A stretch of 64,000 bases of DNA from a bacterium (lineage in GTDB: Bacteria > Patescibacteriota > Minisyncoccia > UBA6257 > GWB1-50-10), in assembly GCA_021801565.1 (NCBI GenBank), contig JAJYXV010000003.1, positions 132,894-196,893 on the forward strand, written 5' to 3'. A model generated the notes under the pieces. That model made no database searches. It saw only the letters and a list, made by a program, of their open reading frames with translations, and was not told where the DNA came from. Both the position numbers and the translations under genes were made by a program. Below are positions 1 to 47,243 of the stretch, in pieces (the first letter of the stretch is position 1; each line of letters starts with the position of its first letter).

Positions 1-445
1 CGAGAAAGATCCATTTGGGATCAACTATAATGTGATTCAATCAAAAATTGCAATTGGTTCGGCGGGTTTTTTCGGAAAAGGATTCGGTCTTGGTACGCAA
101 TCGCATCTTCATTTTCTTCCAGAGGCACAAACTGATTTTATTTTTGCCGCATTTGTCGAAGAGTGGGGATTTTTTGGAGGGCTGTGTCTTATTGGAGCAT
201 TTTTCTTCCTTTTATACCGATTTGTGCAAATCGGACTTCGGGTTGGGGATAACTATTCAAAGTTTTTTATACTAGGGGCTGTTATTATCTTTACACTCCA
301 ATTTTTTATAAATATAGGCTCAGATTTGGGACTTATGCCAGTTACTGGTATTACCTTCCCGTTCTTTAGTTATGGAGGATCAAGTCTCTTGACGGCAGGG
401 ATACTTATAAGTATAATTGAGCATATCAAATTTGAATCCCGTTAA
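1..445 (+). CDS. FtsW/RodA/SpoVE-family peptidoglycan glycosyltransferase, C-terminal part (5' end lies outside the window)
   Basis: The reading frame is open from base 2 to the stop at 445. The translation (IGSAGFFGKGFGLG...PEAQTDFIFAAFVEEWGFFGG...GITFPFFSYGGSSLL) matches conserved C-terminal SEDS-family motifs. Confidence 0.75.
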   Translation, partial: EKDPFGINYNVIQSKIAIGSAGFFGKGFGLGTQSHLHFLPEAQTDFIFAAFVEEWGFFGGLCLIGAFFFLLYRFVQIGLRVGDNYSKFFILGAVIIFTLQFFINIGSDLGLMPVTGITFPFFSYGGSSLLTAGILISIIEHIKFESR

Positions 446-11052: not shown

Positions 11053-11145
11053 AATTTTATTCCCCGGCGATCTTTCGCTGGGGAAATTGGGGAGATGCCA
11101 ATGTAGCCCCGCCAGAGGCGGGCAAGTCAGTTGGTAGATTTACCC

Positions 11146-11217
11146 GCCGAAGTAGCTCAGTGGTAGAGCAATCGCTTCGTAAGCGATGGGTCGTGAGTTC
11201 AACTCTCACCTTCGGCT
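11146..11217 (+). tRNA. tRNA-Thr (anticodon CGT)
   Basis: Cloverleaf folded by hand. The acceptor stem is gccgaag/cttcggc, the D-arm gctc-agtggta-gagc, and the T-arm gtgag-ttcaact-ctcac. The anticodon loop ttCGTaa has stem atcgc/gcgat. Confidence 0.85.
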
Positions 11218-11312
11218 CAAAATATAATGGAATGGGAGGATATCTTTTCACTGTAGATAAGGGAGCGGAATAATCCACAATTGGAGAAATATATAAGGAG
11301 TATAATTAATAC

Positions 11313-13495: not shown

Positions 13496-14103
13496 AATGA
13501 CCTCCTCCCCGGACTCCACTTTGTTGCGTCCGGGGTTTCCTTTTTTGGCATGAGGATTCAAAACAACTTGATGCGTTTTGGCATATCGTGTTTGCTTTGC
13601 CACTCAATGTATTTTTTGATCTGTGATTCATTGAGTCCAATGGTGGATGAAAAATATCCAACACTCCAGATGCCGTCCTTCTCAAGATAAATGTCTTTGA
13701 TATATCTAAACTTCTTTCTAAGCGCTAAGCTACTTGCTGATTTCAATTTCTGGACGGCATCTGATACTGCGATATTCGGCGGTATTTCAATTTGAATGTG
13801 TACATGATCATTATTTGCATTCATGGATTCAATCCAGAGTGTTGGATATTTCTTGCATGTTTCGGACAGACTTTTTTTCAATTCGGGAAGTACATACGAT
13901 TTGAGTATCTTCCGTCGATATTTTGTACCCCACACAATATGATATTGGTGTTGGTATGAAGAATGATTGAGATGTTGAATCCTCATGAGACTAGCCTACC
14001 ACAGCTACGCTGTGGTAGGTAAGCGGTTCCATTCATCCCCGCACTCCGAGAGCTCTATACAATGGATGACGCTCTCTTCGTGCGGGGTTTCCTGGTAATT
14101 AAA
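13496..14103 (-). mobile_element. IS200/IS605-family insertion sequence (tnpA only) with subterminal hairpin ends
   Basis: A Y1 transposase gene sits inside. The left hairpin is ccccggac-N13-gtccgggg (13508-13537) and the right hairpin is ccccgcac-N-gtgcgggg (14034-14077). Both ends recur as a tnpA-less copy at 24568-24747. Confidence 0.8.
13558..13986 (-). CDS. tnpA: IS200-like Y1 (HUH) transposase TnpA
   Basis: 142 aa. It carries YHIVWGTKYRR, the HUH motif HVHIQIEIPP and the catalytic Tyr region SVGYFSSTIG. Confidence 0.9.
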   Translation of the reverse strand: MRIQHLNHSSYQHQYHIVWGTKYRRKILKSYVLPELKKSLSETCKKYPTLWIESMNANNDHVHIQIEIPPNIAVSDAVQKLKSASSLALRKKFRYIKDIYLEKDGIWSVGYFSSTIGLNESQIKKYIEWQSKHDMPKRIKLF

Positions 14104-14106
14104 AAA

Positions 14107-14150
14107 CACCACTCTTTGTAAATGAAAGAGTGGTGTTCGATTTTATTTTG
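14107..14150 (+). terminator. hairpin caccactcttt-gtaaatg-aaagagtggtg followed by a T-rich tract
   Basis: Seen directly. It abuts the IS end. Confidence 0.4.
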
Positions 14151-16875: not shown

Positions 16876-16949
16876 TGGTCGGGATGCAGGGAGTCGAACC
16901 CTGACTACAAGACCCCCAGCCTTGCGTACTACCGCTATACTACATCCCG
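16876..16949 (-). tRNA. tRNA-Pro (anticodon GGG), CCA encoded
   Basis: The reverse complement folds as a cloverleaf. The acceptor stem is cgggatg/catcccg, the T-arm caggg-ttcgact-ccctg, the anticodon loop ctGGGgg, and the 3' end is CCA. Confidence 0.8.
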
Positions 16950-17140
16950 GTATATTTATCCCGTAGGAAGCGGAGCTTCCCTTCGGGGCTACAGCCCGAA
17001 AAGATCTATTTTATTATACTCAAAGATAGGTATATTAATAGTTAGGGATGAACCCGGTAGTGATCCACTAATTGGCTGACTCTAGGTAGACATTTTTATA
17101 TTTTTAGTTTAGAATATAAAACAGTTTTTAAACATATGAG

Positions 17141-22993: not shown

Positions 22994-23278
22994 ATGAAGA
23001 TTCTTAAACTTTTTCTTTTCTTGATTGTATTTGGTATTCTTGTGTGGGGATTTTATCGCCTAAGGGGGGAGCGAGAAACGCTTGTGGAAGAGGTAAAAAA
23101 ACTTCAAGAAACCACTGACTCATTAAAAAAAGAAAACTCATCTTTGGTTGAAAAAATTGAATATTTAAAAAATCCTGAAAATTTAATGAAAGAATTGCGA
23201 GCGCAATTGAACTATAAAAAACAGGGGGAGAATATGATTATTGTGATCCCTCCAAAGACGACAAGCACGGCACCATAG
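22994..23278 (+). CDS. FtsB/DivIC-like septum-formation initiator (TM helix + coiled coil)
   Basis: 94 aa. An N-terminal TM is followed by a heptad-rich segment and a C-terminal LRAQLNYKKQGENMIIVIPP that resembles the FtsB C-terminus. Confidence 0.5.
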   Translation: MKILKLFLFLIVFGILVWGFYRLRGERETLVEEVKKLQETTDSLKKENSSLVEKIEYLKNPENLMKELRAQLNYKKQGENMIIVIPPKTTSTAP

Positions 23279-23503
23279 GAGAAATTCTAAATCCTAATTA
23301 CTAATTTCTAAATAATATTAAAATTCAAAAATACAAATTTAAAAAATAAACAAAGAGACTTTGCGGGCTTGCCCGCCGAAGTTTTCTGAAACGAAGGCGG
23401 GATTGGTTCGGTGCCCGCCCAAAACTTTGTGTTAAGGCGGGTCCGCAAAAATGTCGACATTGTCGCTTTTGGCGGAGTAGAATTTGCGTGATACAATACA
23501 AAA

Positions 23504-23764
23504 ATGTATTACACATATGTTCTTTTGTGTAAAGGTAAGGATAGAGAAAAGATGTATTTTGGATTTACAGGGGATTTAAAGTTAAGAATAGGACAATATC
23601 GAAAAAAAATGGTAAAAACTACAAGGAGTTTTAATGAGATTGAACTTATCTATTACGAATCGTGTAGAAATAAAACGGACGCAAGAAAGAGAGAAATTCA
23701 ACTAAAAACGGGATTTGGACGGGGTTATTTAAAAAGAAGGTTAGAAAATGATATTAAAAATTAA
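23504..23764 (+). CDS. small GIY-YIG nuclease family protein (COG2827/YhbQ-like), copy 1
   Basis: MYYTYVLL..KMYFGFTGDLKLRIGQYRKK carries the GIY-YIG motifs. It ends 4 nt before tRNA-Gly. Confidence 0.75.
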   Translation: MYYTYVLLCKGKDREKMYFGFTGDLKLRIGQYRKKMVKTTRSFNEIELIYYESCRNKTDARKREIQLKTGFGRGYLKRRLENDIKN

Positions 23765-23768
23765 TTTT

Positions 23769-23839
23769 GCGGGTATGGTTTAGTGGTAGAATGCGACCTT
23801 CCCAAGGTTGAGACAGGAGTTCGATTCTCCTTACCCGCA
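23769..23839 (+). tRNA. tRNA-Gly (anticodon CCC)
   Basis: The acceptor stem is gcgggta/tacccgc and the T-arm aggag-ttcgatt-ctcct. The anticodon loop ttCCCaa has stem cgacc/ggttg. Confidence 0.8.
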
Positions 23840-23867
23840 CACAAAAAGCGACAGAAATATACAATAA

Positions 23868-24224
23868 GTGGTGTATATGTTTTCAAAAAAGAATTTTCAA
23901 GATATTCCCATAGAAGGGACATCTCATATATCTGGTTCACGAAAAATAATTACTGCAAAAGAAGAGACAACTTCCAAGTATTTTGAAGCACATACTTACG
24001 GTTATTTACCATCTGGTGTGAAATGGGAAATGCACGAACATGATAATATTGTTGAAATTTGCGTTGTCACAAAAGGTAGGGGAATAATCAGAGATTTTCA
24101 AGGCAACGAGGAAATTTTTGTTGTGGGAGATAGGTTTATATTTCCCCCTAACACAAAACACGAGATCGAAAATAATTCGACTGAAGAAGCTGAATTTTAC
24201 TTTTTTAGATTCAAAGATCAGTAA
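23868..24224 (+). CDS. cupin-domain protein
   Basis: HEHDNIVEICVVTKGRG...GDRFIFPPNTKHEIEN follows the cupin two-motif pattern. Confidence 0.5.
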   Translation: MVYMFSKKNFQDIPIEGTSHISGSRKIITAKEETTSKYFEAHTYGYLPSGVKWEMHEHDNIVEICVVTKGRGIIRDFQGNEEIFVVGDRFIFPPNTKHEIENNSTEEAEFYFFRFKDQ

Positions 24225-24304: not shown

Positions 24305-24517
24305 TTATCGCGTCTTTTTTGATGAAAACAAATCACAGAAAAAGTCAGAGATTTTAAGAATTATTTTGATTGCGGGAATACATATTTTTTCCCCAATTTT
24401 TTCTCCCAGTGTTTGTTCGTGGAATCGAAAGGGAATGGGATATCCGCCGTTGACTCTTATAATTGCATCGTTTGCCAGATCTTCTAACAGTGCATCCATT
24501 TCTCTTGAGATTTCCAT
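24305..24517 (-). CDS. hypothetical protein (ORF continues in-frame into the MITE; true start uncertain)
   Basis: The ORF 24305-24676 runs into the inserted MITE. The Met at 24517 is the first start outside it. Confidence 0.25.
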   Translation of the reverse strand: MEISREMDALLEDLANDAIIRVNGGYPIPFRFHEQTLGEKIGEKICIPAIKIILKISDFFCDLFSSKKTR

Positions 24518-24567
24518 AAATCCTCCGCCTATTTTTATATTACTTTCTTCTTTATACCTCTTTATGT

Positions 24568-24747
24568 AAATGACCTCCTCCCCGGACTCCACTTTGTTGC
24601 GTCCGGGGTTTCCTTTTGATGGCACGCTTTGCGTGAGACGGCGGTATTCGCTTCGCGAAACCATATAAGGTTCCATTCATCCCCGCACTCTGGCGGCTCC
24701 GTCAGTGGATGACGCCGCCGCCGTGCGTGGTTTCCTGGTAATTAAAA
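24568..24747 (-). mobile_element. MITE (PATE-like) derived from the IS200/IS605 element: left and right hairpin ends with no tnpA
   Basis: 24568-24617 is identical to 13496-13545 (aatgacctcctccccggactccactttgttgcgtccggggtttcctttt). 24672-24747 matches the other IS end (ttccattcatccccgcac...gtttcctggtaattaaaaa). Confidence 0.75.
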
Positions 24748-24748
24748 A

Positions 24749-24776
24749 GCGCAACGATTTTGTTGCGCTTTTTTTA
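24749..24776 (+). terminator. hairpin gcgcaac-gatttt-gttgcgc followed by T7, immediately flanking the MITE
   Basis: Seen directly. It probably terminates the convergent OMP-like gene on the minus strand. Confidence 0.5.
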
Positions 24777-25574: not shown

Positions 25575-26633
25575 ATGCTTATGGAATTTGGATTTTGGAA
25601 AAAACTTCGCCCCGTTAGAAATAATTTATATGGCGACAAAAAAATTTCTAACGGGGTAAAAAAACCTTTTTTTGCGATTGCGCCAATGGCAGATGTAACT
25701 GACATTGCATTTCGGGAGACTATTGCAAAATATGGAGCTCCCGATGTGTTTTGGACCGAGTTTGTTTCATGCGATGGGTTGTGTTCGCACGGAAAAGAGA
25801 AGTTATTGATTGATCTGAAATATACAAAAAAACAAAAACCGATTGTGGCACAACTTTTTGGCGCAATGCCGAAACATTTTTATGAATGTGCGTTGCTCGC
25901 GCAAAAACTTGGATTTGATGGTATTGATATTAATATGGGATGTCCTGATCGCGCAGTGGAAAAACAAGGAGCTGGCGCAGCACTTATGAAAAATCCGAAA
26001 CTTGCGCAGGAAATTATTAAAGAAACAAAACGCGGTGCAGGAAAATTACCGGTGTCGGTGAAAACGCGTCTTGGATATAACAAGGATATGATGGAGGATT
26101 GGCTTCCGTATATTTTTGAAATGGAGCCTGCGGTGATTACGGTGCATGGTCGAACACGAAAAGAGATGTCGAGAGTTCCTACGCGGTGGAACAGAATCAC
26201 TGACGCAGTTTTCTTACGCGATGGGTATTTTTCTCATGGAGAAGAAAAACCGCTTATTATCGGGAATGGGGATATTTTGAGTGTCGAGGATGGGCTAGAA
26301 AAGGCAAAAGAATCGGGAGTCGATGGAATTATGGTGGGAAGAGGAATATTCGGAAATCCATTCTTTTTTGCAAAAAACAGAAAAGAAGTTCTTTTGAAAA
26401 AACGATTATCGGTAATGCTCGAACATGTCCGTCTCTTTGAAAAGTATTTTGGAAATTCAAATATCCATCGCTCTACATCGCTCAAAAACTTTGATAATAT
26501 GAAGAAGCATTTTAAAGCGTACGTTTCTGGCTTTGATAACGCGAAAGAATTGCGAATAAAACTTATGAGTACGAAAAGTGCGAATGAGGTGGAAGATGTT
26601 ATGGATGAATGGTCTAAATTAAATAAAATTTAG
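25575..26633 (+). CDS. tRNA-dihydrouridine synthase
   Basis: FFAIAPMADVTDIAFR, GFDGIDINMGCP and the VSVKTRLGY TIM-barrel flavoenzyme motifs of the Dus family are present. Confidence 0.85.
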   Translation: MLMEFGFWKKLRPVRNNLYGDKKISNGVKKPFFAIAPMADVTDIAFRETIAKYGAPDVFWTEFVSCDGLCSHGKEKLLIDLKYTKKQKPIVAQLFGAMPKHFYECALLAQKLGFDGIDINMGCPDRAVEKQGAGAALMKNPKLAQEIIKETKRGAGKLPVSVKTRLGYNKDMMEDWLPYIFEMEPAVITVHGRTRKEMSRVPTRWNRITDAVFLRDGYFSHGEEKPLIIGNGDILSVEDGLEKAKESGVDGIMVGRGIFGNPFFFAKNRKEVLLKKRLSVMLEHVRLFEKYFGNSNIHRSTSLKNFDNMKKHFKAYVSGFDNAKELRIKLMSTKSANEVEDVMDEWSKLNKI

Positions 26634-37336: not shown

Positions 37337-37585
37337 ATGTGGAATGTGTACATTTTGAAAAGTGAGGGTCGTAATTGGTTTTATGTTGGGAGCACCAATG
37401 ATCTAACGCGTTGCATCAAAGAACACGAAAACGGAAAGGTACAATCGACAAAAAGTTATCGTCCACTCACCTTAGTTTTTACCAAAGAATTTGACGAGGA
37501 ACGAGATGCAGGGGCATATGAGCGTAAATTAAAAAAATGTAGAATTGAGAAAGAGAGCATAATTAAGAAATTTAATTTATGCTAA
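37337..37585 (+). CDS. small GIY-YIG nuclease family protein (COG2827-like), copy 2
   Basis: WNVYILKSEGRNWFYVGSTNDLTRCIKEHENG carries the GIY-YIG motifs. It ends 7 nt before tRNA-Gln. Confidence 0.72.
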   Translation: MWNVYILKSEGRNWFYVGSTNDLTRCIKEHENGKVQSTKSYRPLTLVFTKEFDEERDAGAYERKLKKCRIEKESIIKKFNLC

Positions 37586-37592
37586 ATGATAT

Positions 37593-37663
37593 TGCGGGAT
37601 CGTCTAATGGTAGGACAGCGGACTCTGAATCCGTCAATCTTGGTTCGAATCCAGGTCCCGCAG
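37593..37663 (+). tRNA. tRNA-Gln (anticodon CTG)
   Basis: The acceptor stem is tgcggga/tcccgca, the D-arm gtct-aatggta-ggac, and the T-arm cttgg-ttcgaat-ccagg. The anticodon loop ctCTGaa has stem gcgga/tccgt. Confidence 0.8.
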
Positions 37664-37765
37664 CACGAGTCAGCACGGTATCGAGGCAAGACCACCTTGC
37701 CTCAGCAACGACCGACTTTCTCCGTCCTTGAAAATGTCATACCGGCTGAGTGCCGTATTCAAGAC

Positions 37766-45246: not shown

Positions 45247-45812
45247 GTGCTATACTGTTATTGCATGTAACACGACCTTTGGTCGTAAACGAAAAACCGG
45301 AGCCGTTATCATCGGTTCCGGTTTTTCTAATATTAGTTGTGTATTTGAAGAATCGGAGGAAGGTTAGGTCTTGGTCGCAAAAATTGTGCTTTGAGGTAAC
45401 CTCCGATGATAGGGTCTGACTAGTTCTGACTTTTCAATTTACTCTTACATTATAGCGCATTTTTCGAAAATTTTCAATCTTTGATCCGACATAAGCCAAG
45501 ACCTAGAGGGGTCAGAAAAATGCTAGAACGCAACGCAAAAAAGCCTTATACTGATTGAAGAGTTGTGGCACTAGACCACACAACACAGCATATGCAAAGC
45601 CGCTTGCCTTTTTAGGTGAGCGGCTTTGCATTATATTGTTGGTCTGGATTCGAACGGGAAAAGGGTTGGGAAAACGGAAGTTTTCCTGTGGTGGAGGTAC
45701 TGGAACCGCAAGGTGTCAGAAAATTTTGAGAATACAAAATTTTGTTTGATTGCCAGGTCCCGCAGCACTTCGGCAAGCTCAGTGCAAGCACATCTGAGAG
45801 GTATAATAAAAA

Positions 45813-46102
45813 CATGTGGTATATATGCATGCTTTTTTGTGATCAGAAGACTTTTTACGTCGGGATAACTGATGATCCGAAAAAGAGATTAGTAGAACAT
45901 CGAAGGGGGTGCTCATTTTATACAAAAAAGTTTTCTGATCTAGAGTTCATATTATTGTGAACAATATTCGAGTAAGCATGAAGCTGCCTTGCGGGAAAGA
46001 CAAATCAAGGGATGGGCGAGAGCAAAGAAGCAGATGTTATTAGATGGTAAGCTTGGGTATAATATTTGTACTGAGATTGTCGAAGCTCTTCGGAATGGAT
46101 GA
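45813..46102 (+). pseudogene. GIY-YIG nuclease family gene (COG2827-like), copy 3, frameshifted
   Basis: The N-terminal part MWYICMLFCDQKTFYVGITDDPKKRLVEHRRG is in frame 0 and stops at 45960. The C-terminal part HEAALRERQIKGWARAKKQMLLDGKLGYN continues in frame 2 to the TGA at 46100. Confidence 0.55.
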
Positions 46103-46138
46103 CTTGCCCTGAGTATACCGAAGGGAATCCCTGTCCGG

Positions 46139-46178
46139 CAGCACGAGTCGGTGCAGTATCGAGTGAGAATGGAGAGCG
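46139..46178 (+). repeat. 40-bp direct repeat copy A (CAGCACGAGTCGGTGCAGTATCGAGTGAGAATGGAGAGCG)
   Basis: Identical to 47101-47140. It is related (21/26) to the sequence immediately 3' of tRNA-Gln (37661-37686). Confidence 0.85.
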
Positions 46179-46275
46179 TCATTGTAAGCGACTCTCGTCT
46201 CGTGGTTCAAGGCAACCAAGACCCATACCCTTTTCCTAGAAATCGAACTAAAATTAAAAATTATATTTAGGAATT

Positions 46276-47058: not shown

Positions 47059-47100
47059 GCGGGGTTTGAACCTACCACGGGTTTTAACTCGAGAGTCGGC

Positions 47101-47140
47101 CAGCACGAGTCGGTGCAGTATCGAGTGAGAATGGAGAGCG
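47101..47140 (+). repeat. 40-bp direct repeat copy B
   Basis: Identical to 46139-46178. Confidence 0.85.
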
Positions 47141-47243
47141 AAGTTTTGAGCCAGGGCTCTCTTATTATCAGCTCTAAACGTTTGAGATCTATAACCTTTC
47201 TTGGATAAACAAAAACCACTCAAGTGATAAGTACTTAAGTGGT

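Follow-up and report, generated by a model that had tools for sequence, protein, structure and literature searches.

A hairpin-nuclease-tRNA cassette that probably interrupts and replaces a tRNA-Gly gene, and the recurrence of its design next to tRNA genes across Patescibacteria

We analyzed a stretch of 64,000 nucleotides of patescibacterial DNA (hereafter the window), whose proteins have their closest relatives in Patescibacteria (CPR) MAGs, and found that the region before its tRNA-Gly(CCC) gene is probably the left junction and the body of a miniature selfish cassette (hairpin-nuclease-tRNA), which inserted into a tRNA-Gly gene and supplied a replacement for it. This reading, drawn from sequence comparison, builds on the architecture of the locus, its recurrence in other genomes, the covariation within the hairpins, the unoccupied sites of relatives, and the matching halves of the resident tRNA gene in two loci. 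In the window, the leader of the resident gene and nt 1-17 of the tRNA come first; a double hairpin of 63 nt separates them from the next 7 nt of the old tRNA, after which stand promoter-like sequence, the nuclease gene, and a complete tRNA-Gly gene. The parts of the locus are as follows.

23363-23396, plus strand: native leader of the resident tRNA-Gly gene, GCGGGCTTGCCCGCC-GAAG-small hairpin-CGAAG, shared with other loci
23397-23413, plus strand: stub of the resident tRNA-Gly, nt 1-17, GCGGGATTGGTTCGGTG, 13/17 identical to the intact downstream gene
23414-23441, plus strand: hairpin 1 of the double-hairpin module, CCCGCCCAAAAC...TTAAGGCGGG, matched by covariance model R1, with stems that covary across loci
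23442-23476, plus strand: hairpin 2 of the module, TCCGCAAAAATG tcgacattgtcg CTTTTGGCGGA, which holds the palindrome aatgtcgacatt (23450-23461)
23469-23497, plus strand: promoter-like TTGGCG-N17-TACAAT with TG before the -10 box (consensus match only)
23477-23483, plus strand: stub of the resident tRNA-Gly continued, nt 18-24, GTAGAAT, 7/7 identical, with numbering contiguous with 23397-23413
23504-23764, plus strand: GIY-YIG nuclease gene, 86 aa, catalytic domain only, of the UPF0213/Slx1-like branch (Pfam PF01541)
23769-23840, plus strand: intact tRNA-Gly(CCC), the working copy (ARAGORN; Rfam tRNA, 67 bits)

An earlier note on this DNA had placed a GIY-YIG ORF between a degenerate 5′ piece of tRNA-Gly with a palindromic insert and an intact tRNA-Gly gene. 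In substance this was right, and the complete tRNA-Gly does start 4 nt past the nuclease stop codon, as it said. All the strings that it quoted are present (gcgggt at 23437-23442, the palindrome aatgtcgacatt, and ttttggcggagtagaat at 23467-23483), and several of them have to be assigned differently. The string gcgggt, taken for nt 1-6 of the tRNA, is in fact a hairpin arm, and the real nt 1-17 lie at 23397-23413. The insert is not about 24 nt long but 63 nt, and it consists of two hairpins. ttttggcggagtagaat had been read as the D-arm, which is correct for its gtagaat part, but ttttggcgga is again a hairpin arm. The three GC hairpins described upstream of the ORF exist; however, the first two (23363-23401) are part of the leader native to tRNA-Gly, and unoccupied sites have this leader too.

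The plain local alignment of tRNA-Gly with the upstream region gave a score of 14, which was equalled by 517 of 1000 and by 2921 of 5000 shuffles. With the 24-nt excision of the earlier note, the same score was reached in 2733 of 5000 shuffles. Thus, the claimed similarity fails in a local alignment with shuffled controls, which the note itself had named as its refutation, and it was rescued only by a parse that takes the hairpins into account and by comparative data. The plain alignment would suit the explanation that the hairpins are terminators of the upstream gene and that the tRNA-like words are coincidental. We find this scarcely credible for the following reasons. When the 63-nt module was taken out, its flanks gave a contiguous 20/24 match to tRNA-Gly nt 1-24, and this score was reached in none of 20,000 shuffles. 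Among all possible 63-nt deletions, the best-scoring one was exactly the module (23414-23476). In addition, a covariance model of the hairpins (R1), built from 16 other loci with the window left out, matched the window at 23410-23480 with E values of 5e-9 (plus strand) and 8e-11 (minus strand), and this was its sole match in the window. The same architecture occurs in dozens of genomes, and a terminator scan found no terminator-like site. With the shuffles and an independent model match at E ~1e-9, the opinion of the note that chance is unlikely was borne out.

The correct register was first shown by relatives of the locus (numbered L001 and so on). For instance, in L003, whose nuclease is 79% identical (tblastn), an exact copy of tRNA-Gly nt 1-17 stands upstream of the ORF, followed by the hairpin and then by GTAGAA. 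The stub of nt 1-17 at this place matches at 17/17 positions in L003 and at 14/17 in L001. Furthermore, the module of the window fits the family consensus better on the minus strand, and thus it is inverted relative to most family members. The promoter-like site at 23469-23497 is weak by itself, because the promoter scan gave 3 sites when 1.8 were expected. This site ends 6 nt before the ATG of the nuclease, which suggests a leaderless mRNA.

ARAGORN finds four tRNA genes in the window, and a second locus shows the same organization. The GIY-YIG ORF of this locus and the other three tRNA genes of the window are listed here.

11146-11218, plus strand: tRNA-Thr (ARAGORN)
16876-16949, minus strand: tRNA-Pro (ARAGORN)
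37337-37585: GIY-YIG ORF, 82 aa, directly before tRNA-Gln (Pfam PF01541, 48.3 bits)
37593-37664, plus strand: tRNA-Gln(CTG) (ARAGORN)

The stub of tRNA-Gln consists of TGCCGGATC, an 18-nt palindrome, and GTCTAATGGTAGGACA. After splicing, it matches the tRNA at 24 of 25 positions, and none of 5000 shuffles reached this match. The pattern is kept in three relatives of the Gln family (L111-L113), where TGCGGGATCG, CCTGCCTGCGCAGGCAGG, and TCTAATGGT stand before the ATG and tRNA-Gln stands after the ORF. The likeness between the two loci that the earlier note had pointed out is therefore real. The Gly-linked and Gln-linked nucleases of the window share only 29% identity, and hairpin modules inside the window are found only at tRNA loci. 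A broken third GIY-YIG copy is also present in the window, near 45.8 kb.

Unoccupied relatives of the tRNA-Gly locus were found by searching with the downstream cupin gene. In L092 and L094, the leader GCGGGCTTGCCCGCC-GAAG-hairpin-CGAAG stands directly before an intact tRNA-Gly gene, with no cassette. The same leader stands directly before the left stub at the occupied sites of the window (23363-23396), L022, and L003. Thus, the stub is the 5′ end of the resident gene in its native place. No hairpin module was found in the unoccupied cupin-linked loci. Presence (the window, L003, and L022) and absence (L092 and L094) of the cassette are seen at the same site in related genomes, the target gene is disrupted, and its flanks become contiguous once the element is removed. 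Around the split of the window stub there is no target-site duplication. In L098, which has the same synteny, the site holds a different GIY-YIG subfamily, accompanied here too by hairpins and a fragment of a tRNA. We also considered that the tRNA-Gly(CCC) of the window had been imported as a GCC-type body, and this idea was weakened since the isoacceptor beside the cupin gene varies among relatives.

In a dozen loci, the intact tRNA is followed by a second hairpin module and then by nt X+1 to 72 of a tRNA, where X is the split point. In L039 and L022, this downstream 3′ half pairs in the acceptor and anticodon stems with the left stub and not with the intact tRNA; the pairing test is discriminating in these two loci only, and the anticodon stems were checked by eye. 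A resident 3′ part is also retained in L015, L033, L042, L055, L076, and L080. Together, the resident halves and the second module give a full layout of R[1..X]-hairpin-r[X+1..Y]-nuclease-N(intact tRNA)-r'[..X]-hairpin-R[X+1..72], in which the usual places of X are the anticodon loop (34/35) and the D region (12, 17, 22). The form in the window is the one without the right half.

Species-representative genomes were scanned with the family alignment, which gave 80 loci. A same-strand tRNA overlaps the stop of the ORF or lies no more than 15 nt away in 66 of the 80 loci; five more have the tRNA at up to 120 nt, and in another five the contig ends within the locus. The stop codon of the nuclease falls at nt 8-10 of the tRNA in 40 loci. 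The linked tRNA is tRNA-Gly (CCC, TCC, or GCC) in 62 cases and Asn, Gln, Ala, Val, Asp, or Thr in the rest. In addition, secondary copies were found at Leu, Ser, and Thr tRNAs, and a genome can hold several paralogous copies at different tRNAs. In 67 of 77 loci, the 150 nt ahead of the ATG contain a hairpin module. A copy of the 5′ part of the linked tRNA stands upstream with significant similarity in 46 of 77 loci, and it is often exact over nt 1-34. When the stubs were parsed in two segments, the module (54-70 nt) interrupted the stub and its flanks were not duplicated. The commonest split follows nt 34 (anticodon loop, 34/35), and others follow nt 12 or 17 (D region); in Val and Asp it is after nt 22, and in Gln, Leu, and Thr after nt 9-18. 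The family alignment gave no match in viral contigs.

The hairpin stems have compensatory changes in 15 of 22 pairs and almost no G-U pairs, and the module was found in both orientations. The two orientations and the scarcity of G-U pairs point to a role at the DNA level or a strand-symmetric role. Some stubs hold two modules, and the split position (12, 17, or 34) differs between sister nucleases. We also found, upstream of some tRNAs, hairpin-interrupted remnants that have no ORF (L061, L071, L072, L079, and L003-Arg). These features, together with the absence of a target-site duplication on insertion, would be expected if the hairpins were independent MITE-like or double-hairpin elements that insert at tRNA-like loops. 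In that case, the nuclease would merely lie upstream and might mobilize them in trans, and the stub would be an unrelated partial tandem duplication. We think that this is unlikely, because the modules almost never occur away from the nuclease-tRNA unit (only 2 such sites in about 370 kb of surveyed loci) and the type of hairpin covaries with the nuclease clade. Moreover, the stubs are enriched beside the nuclease: an upstream 5′ copy was present for 58 of 86 nuclease-linked tRNAs, but for only 9 of 64 tRNAs without a nuclease. It should be noted that this explanation overlaps with the cassette reading and does not exclude it.

The nuclease of the tRNA-Gly locus matches Pfam PF01541 at 23504-23761 with 43.5 bits (cut-off 22.6, E = 4e-11). 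We found 555 relatives, whose named sources are Patescibacteria or unclassified MAGs, and the family profile collected 703 clusters (50% identity) at E<=1e-10. The catalytic Tyr, Gly, Arg, and Glu (Y5, G20, R28, and E64) are invariant in 34 relatives, and so is a C-terminal motif, QLKTGFGRGY, that is distinctive of the family. The near-invariant His32 is Tyr in the protein of the window, whereas L001 keeps His. The AF2 model (pLDDT 90) has a beta-beta-alpha-beta-alpha-alpha topology. Its best structural matches are UPF0213 proteins, the plant Holliday-junction resolvase HIGLE, UvrC, and Slx1 (1zg2, 1ywl, and 7wme among the structures), with I-TevI far lower, so that the closest structures are GIY-YIG nucleases specific for DNA structure; none of these scores is strong, which is normal for about 80 residues. 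The E values to the UPF0213/YhbQ and Slx1/HIGLE branch are weak as well (0.0016 by sequence, 0.016 or worse by fold). Pfam and the AF2 model gave no DNA-binding module for a long target, and all 86 aa belong to the catalytic domain. The Gly-linked protein was not assigned to any specific family by NCBIfam. A rough tree groups the nucleases by tRNA identity and by hairpin type, whereas the place at which the hairpin interrupts the stub does not follow the tree. Nucleases linked to Gly, Asn, Val, and Asp have the double hairpin, those linked to Leu, Thr, Gln, and Ala have a single long hairpin, and the Gln family of the window has an 18-bp perfect palindrome.

The strong conservation of the active-site residues, the protein, and the hairpin stems over deep divergence raises the question of whether the unit benefits the host. 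The nuclease might be a housekeeping factor for repair, processing, or recombination control that is cotranscribed with the tRNA, and the stub and hairpins might be a cis-regulatory leader. In agreement with this, many Microgenomates have one and the same syntenic site (tRNA-Asp ... tRNA-Gly) occupied, which might reflect long vertical inheritance and a function for the host. Furthermore, the stub equals the tRNA over 34 nt in many loci though the tRNAs differ between loci, the ORF stop inside the tRNA couples expression to tRNA processing, and the promoter-like boxes overlap the hairpin and the tRNA-derived sequence. However, relatives with unoccupied sites have a normal leader and tRNA, and the stubs range from perfect to heavily decayed across loci. 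Nested or serial copies (L019, L055, L046, and L006), the remnants without ORF, and one frameshifted copy also speak against a host function, as do the either-way orientation of the module and the paralogous copies at different tRNAs within one genome. We therefore regard domestication as improbable and prefer a selfish cassette.

If the cassette is selfish, it may spread by recombinational copying, in which a break in an unoccupied tRNA gene would be mended with an occupied copy as the template, and the tRNA sequence would provide the homology. Such use of the tRNA would account for the constancy of tRNA identity within each nuclease clade. The break would be made by the minimal Slx1/UPF0213-like nuclease, which probably acts on a DNA structure (hairpin loops or cruciforms) and not on a long sequence, and the clade-specific hairpin is likely to be its substrate or binding site. 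The cassette tRNA is the same around X as the unoccupied target, and thus a sequence-specific homing nuclease would cut its own copy. This identity, as far as the sequences tell, argues against a simple sequence-based immunity. Since the resident gene is split and the cassette probably supplies the sole intact copy, loss of the cassette would cost the host that tRNA. A later deletion between the repeated 3′ parts may have produced the common “left-only” form, as in the window. The copy in the window looks old and decaying, because its stub is 13/17, its right half is gone, and His32 has changed to Tyr.

The position of the split varies between sisters and some stubs have two modules; thus, the insertion of the hairpin may be separate from that of the ORF. 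A circular intermediate or hairpin-by-hairpin recombination would fit the layout; the left and right modules of one locus usually differ in sequence. More generally, there may be a class of selfish elements in Patescibacteria that break tRNA genes in the D or anticodon region, carry a replacement tRNA, use a minimal structure-specific nuclease on their own clade-specific hairpin or cruciform, and find the target by homology of the cargo tRNA and not through recognition of DNA by the protein. We offer this generalization only tentatively. An even bolder variant is that the stub and hairpin are transcribed and could guide the nuclease.

The tRNA genes of Patescibacteria often contain group I introns, mostly in the anticodon loop (PMC13011429), and many members of our family are split at 34/35. 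Thus both occur in tRNA genes of this phylum, and often in the same loop, and one could ask whether tRNA-Gly is interrupted by a self-splicing group I intron with an intron-encoded GIY-YIG homing endonuclease. This is very improbable. No intron family was detected in the window at 23200-23950 (E up to 10) or in L060 (E up to 5), the noncoding insert is only about 60 nt, and a complete tRNA follows the ORF, so that removal of the insert does not rebuild one gene. In addition, the tRNA-intron endonucleases in the survey of Patescibacteria are HNH enzymes, most of the introns have none, and GIY-YIG is never mentioned (PMC13011429). The cassette is without a ribozyme, its ORF is not in a spliced intron, and the gene is replaced and not spliced. 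When the window locus and the canonical locus L060 were scanned with Rfam 15, only the tRNA was matched, and the hairpin module matched no curated model.

Integrative elements with attachment sites in tRNA genes encode an integrase, duplicate the 3′ part of the tRNA, and are kilobases long. The cassette resembles them in that it is inserted in a tRNA gene, a tRNA segment is duplicated, and one intact copy is kept. However, no integrase was found at the locus (the neighboring ORFs in the syntenic L001 carry DivIC and cupin Pfam domains), and the repeat is of the 5′ part of the tRNA and not a direct repeat of the 3′ part as in integrase islands. The element is about 0.4 kb long and has a hairpin at the junction. 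The target-site duplication of MITEs and transposons is absent too, and the bases on either side of the module are neighbors in tRNA numbering, both in the window and across the loci.

Further parallels are found among free-standing nuclease elements. In mitochondria, endonuclease ORFs reportedly bring a replacement gene end, as is said of Allomyces atp6, and double-hairpin elements are said to occur (work ascribed to Paquin, Laforest and Lang 1994 and Paquin et al. 2000). As in that case, the ORF of the cassette brings a copy of the target gene, the gene stays functional, a displaced resident fragment persists, and there are GC-rich double hairpins. The Allomyces element is organellar, has a protein-coding target, and displaces the 3′ end, whereas the cassette is bacterial, targets tRNA genes, leaves a 5′ stub (sometimes also a 3′ half), and has its hairpin exactly at the gene break. 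In phage T4, SegB is an intronless GIY-YIG gene in a tRNA gene cluster, and it is thought to spread with the flanking tRNA by break repair, through intronless homing with co-conversion (PMC2330249); it is a multidomain, site-specific enzyme. The cassette is like the T4 Seg genes in that a GIY-YIG gene without an intron lies among or next to tRNA genes. The cassette differs from SegB in that its nuclease has 86 aa and the catalytic domain only, that a hairpin module accompanies a resident tRNA which is split and replaced by a further copy, and that the cassette is chromosomal in Patescibacteria, without a match in viral contigs.

The UPF0213/YhbQ and Slx1/HIGLE proteins, which gave the best sequence and fold matches, are likewise small and built around the catalytic domain, but the nuclease of the cassette has the QLKTGFGRGY motif. 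In the literature searched, we did not find a fixed genomic partnership of these proteins with tRNA genes and hairpins. Likewise, no description of the present arrangement was found in the literature on GIY-YIG, Patescibacteria/CPR, tRNA genes, double-hairpin elements, and UPF0213/YhbQ. Thus, the cassette belongs to a known kind, the free-standing nuclease elements with gene restoration, and it stands out by its breadth and its unusual logic of replacement. The design, recurring next to tRNA genes across Patescibacteria, is apparently undescribed.

If the proposed reading is true, selfish DNA has a further way to persist in essential genes that needs neither an intron nor an integrase, namely to split the gene and bring a spare. 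It would also give a function and a natural substrate to many tiny proteins annotated as “GIY-YIG nuclease family” in candidate-phyla bacteria, and it would explain tRNA gene fragments, and possibly isoacceptor turnover, in these reduced genomes. There could also be practical interest in so small a nuclease (about 85 residues) that has a defined hairpin partner. The arrangement also matters for annotation, since gene callers run ORFs into the hairpin and the tRNA stub, and many of these ORFs have their stop within the tRNA.

In 40 of 71 loci (L008-L087, related loci in other genomes), the nuclease ORF lacks its own stop codon and terminates at U8-A9-G10 of the tRNA; others terminate at tRNA nt 13-15. 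Because the stop lies inside the tRNA, a co-transcript cut by RNase P would yield a non-stop mRNA. At the opposite end, gene callers often stretch the nuclease ORF upstream into the hairpin and the stub, the tRNA 5' copy that the hairpin splits; for example, an N-terminal 'RDHLSAQAGLMVG' is found in the Gln family.

Candidate hairpin-split fragments also lie upstream of two tRNAs in the window:

11095-11145, + strand: ORF-less version of the cassette design (split stub, GIY-YIG nuclease ORF, intact tRNA), upstream of tRNA-Thr 11146-11218
16950-17000, - strand: possible hairpin-split copy of the tRNA-Pro 5' end, upstream of tRNA-Pro 16876-16949

The former consists of gccaatGTAGC, the hairpin cccgccagaggcgggcaag and TCAGTTGGTAGA, with likeness to tRNA-Thr nt 1-11 and 12-23. 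It was the rank-4 match in the window of the hairpin model, a covariance model of the hairpin module (E = 0.55), and its two-segment score, for alignment of the tRNA 5' copy as two pieces around the hairpin, was 24, below the null 95th percentile (25). In the latter, CGGGCTGTAG corresponds to tRNA-Pro nt 1-10 (9/10) and is followed by the hairpin ccccgaagggaagctccgcttcctacggg and ATA; this site was the rank-3 match (E = 0.36), which alone is not significant. Both sub-threshold matches directly precede the two other tRNAs of the window (Thr and Pro).

The tRNA-Gly locus carries a further conserved element:

23363-23396: conserved tRNA-Gly leader, GCGGGCTTGCCCGCC-GAAG-variable hairpin-CGAAG

The leader lies immediately 5' of tRNA-Gly genes and is also present in L092, L094, L022, and L003, that is, at sites both with and without the cassette. 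Its candidate roles include a processing signal, a promoter element, or an older remnant. In addition, its CCCGCC is able to pair with the first tRNA bases.

The window tRNA-Gly(CCC) (23769-23840) was compared with the tRNA-Gly genes of L003, L092, L094, L095, and L098. It was identical to tRNA-Gly(GCC) of L003 at 68/71 positions and of L092 at 66/71, whereas only 46-55/71 were shared with the relatives' tRNA-Gly(CCC) at the cupin-linked site. Furthermore, the Gly isoacceptor beside the cupin gene differs among relatives (CCC, GCC, and TCC). These comparisons suggest that the anticodon has switched here or that the tRNA at this position has turned over.

The window also includes a third GIY-YIG gene:

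~45816-46100: YhbQ-like GIY-YIG gene, interrupted by a stop or frameshift

Both sides of this gene (region 45738-46189) carry copies of the tRNA-Gln 3' end and the flank that follows it: 45738-45768 matches 37636-37666 at 77% identity, and 46125-46163 matches 37647-37685 at 82%. A third copy of the 3' end region lies at 47087-47151, and no intact tRNA is present at this locus (45738-46189, 47087-47151). The locus may represent a different element type, which duplicates tRNA 3' ends.

Other repeats were also observed:

25610-25656: inverted repeat CCCCGTTAGAAAT...ATTTCTAACGGGG

This motif recurs within the left tRNA-Gly stub of L003 (~2785-2875) and in L020, close to and upstream of tRNA-Thr, and resembles a small mobile palindrome distinct from the cassette. 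Meanwhile, a 49-nt exact repeat with a GC hairpin (13496-13544 and 24569-24617) is accompanied by neighbouring repeats (14025-14117 and 24669-24760, 79-87% identity). These lie inside or beside two minus-strand ORFs (13558-13986 and 24305-24676), of which one is just downstream of the cupin gene, and probably represent paralogous genes. In L092 (~1760-1990), the last ~20 nt of tRNA-Gly(GCC) recur ~190 nt further on, an arrangement resembling another small insertion at the 3' end of the tRNA. L091 has tandem copies of a ~44-nt unit following tRNA-Gly(TCC).
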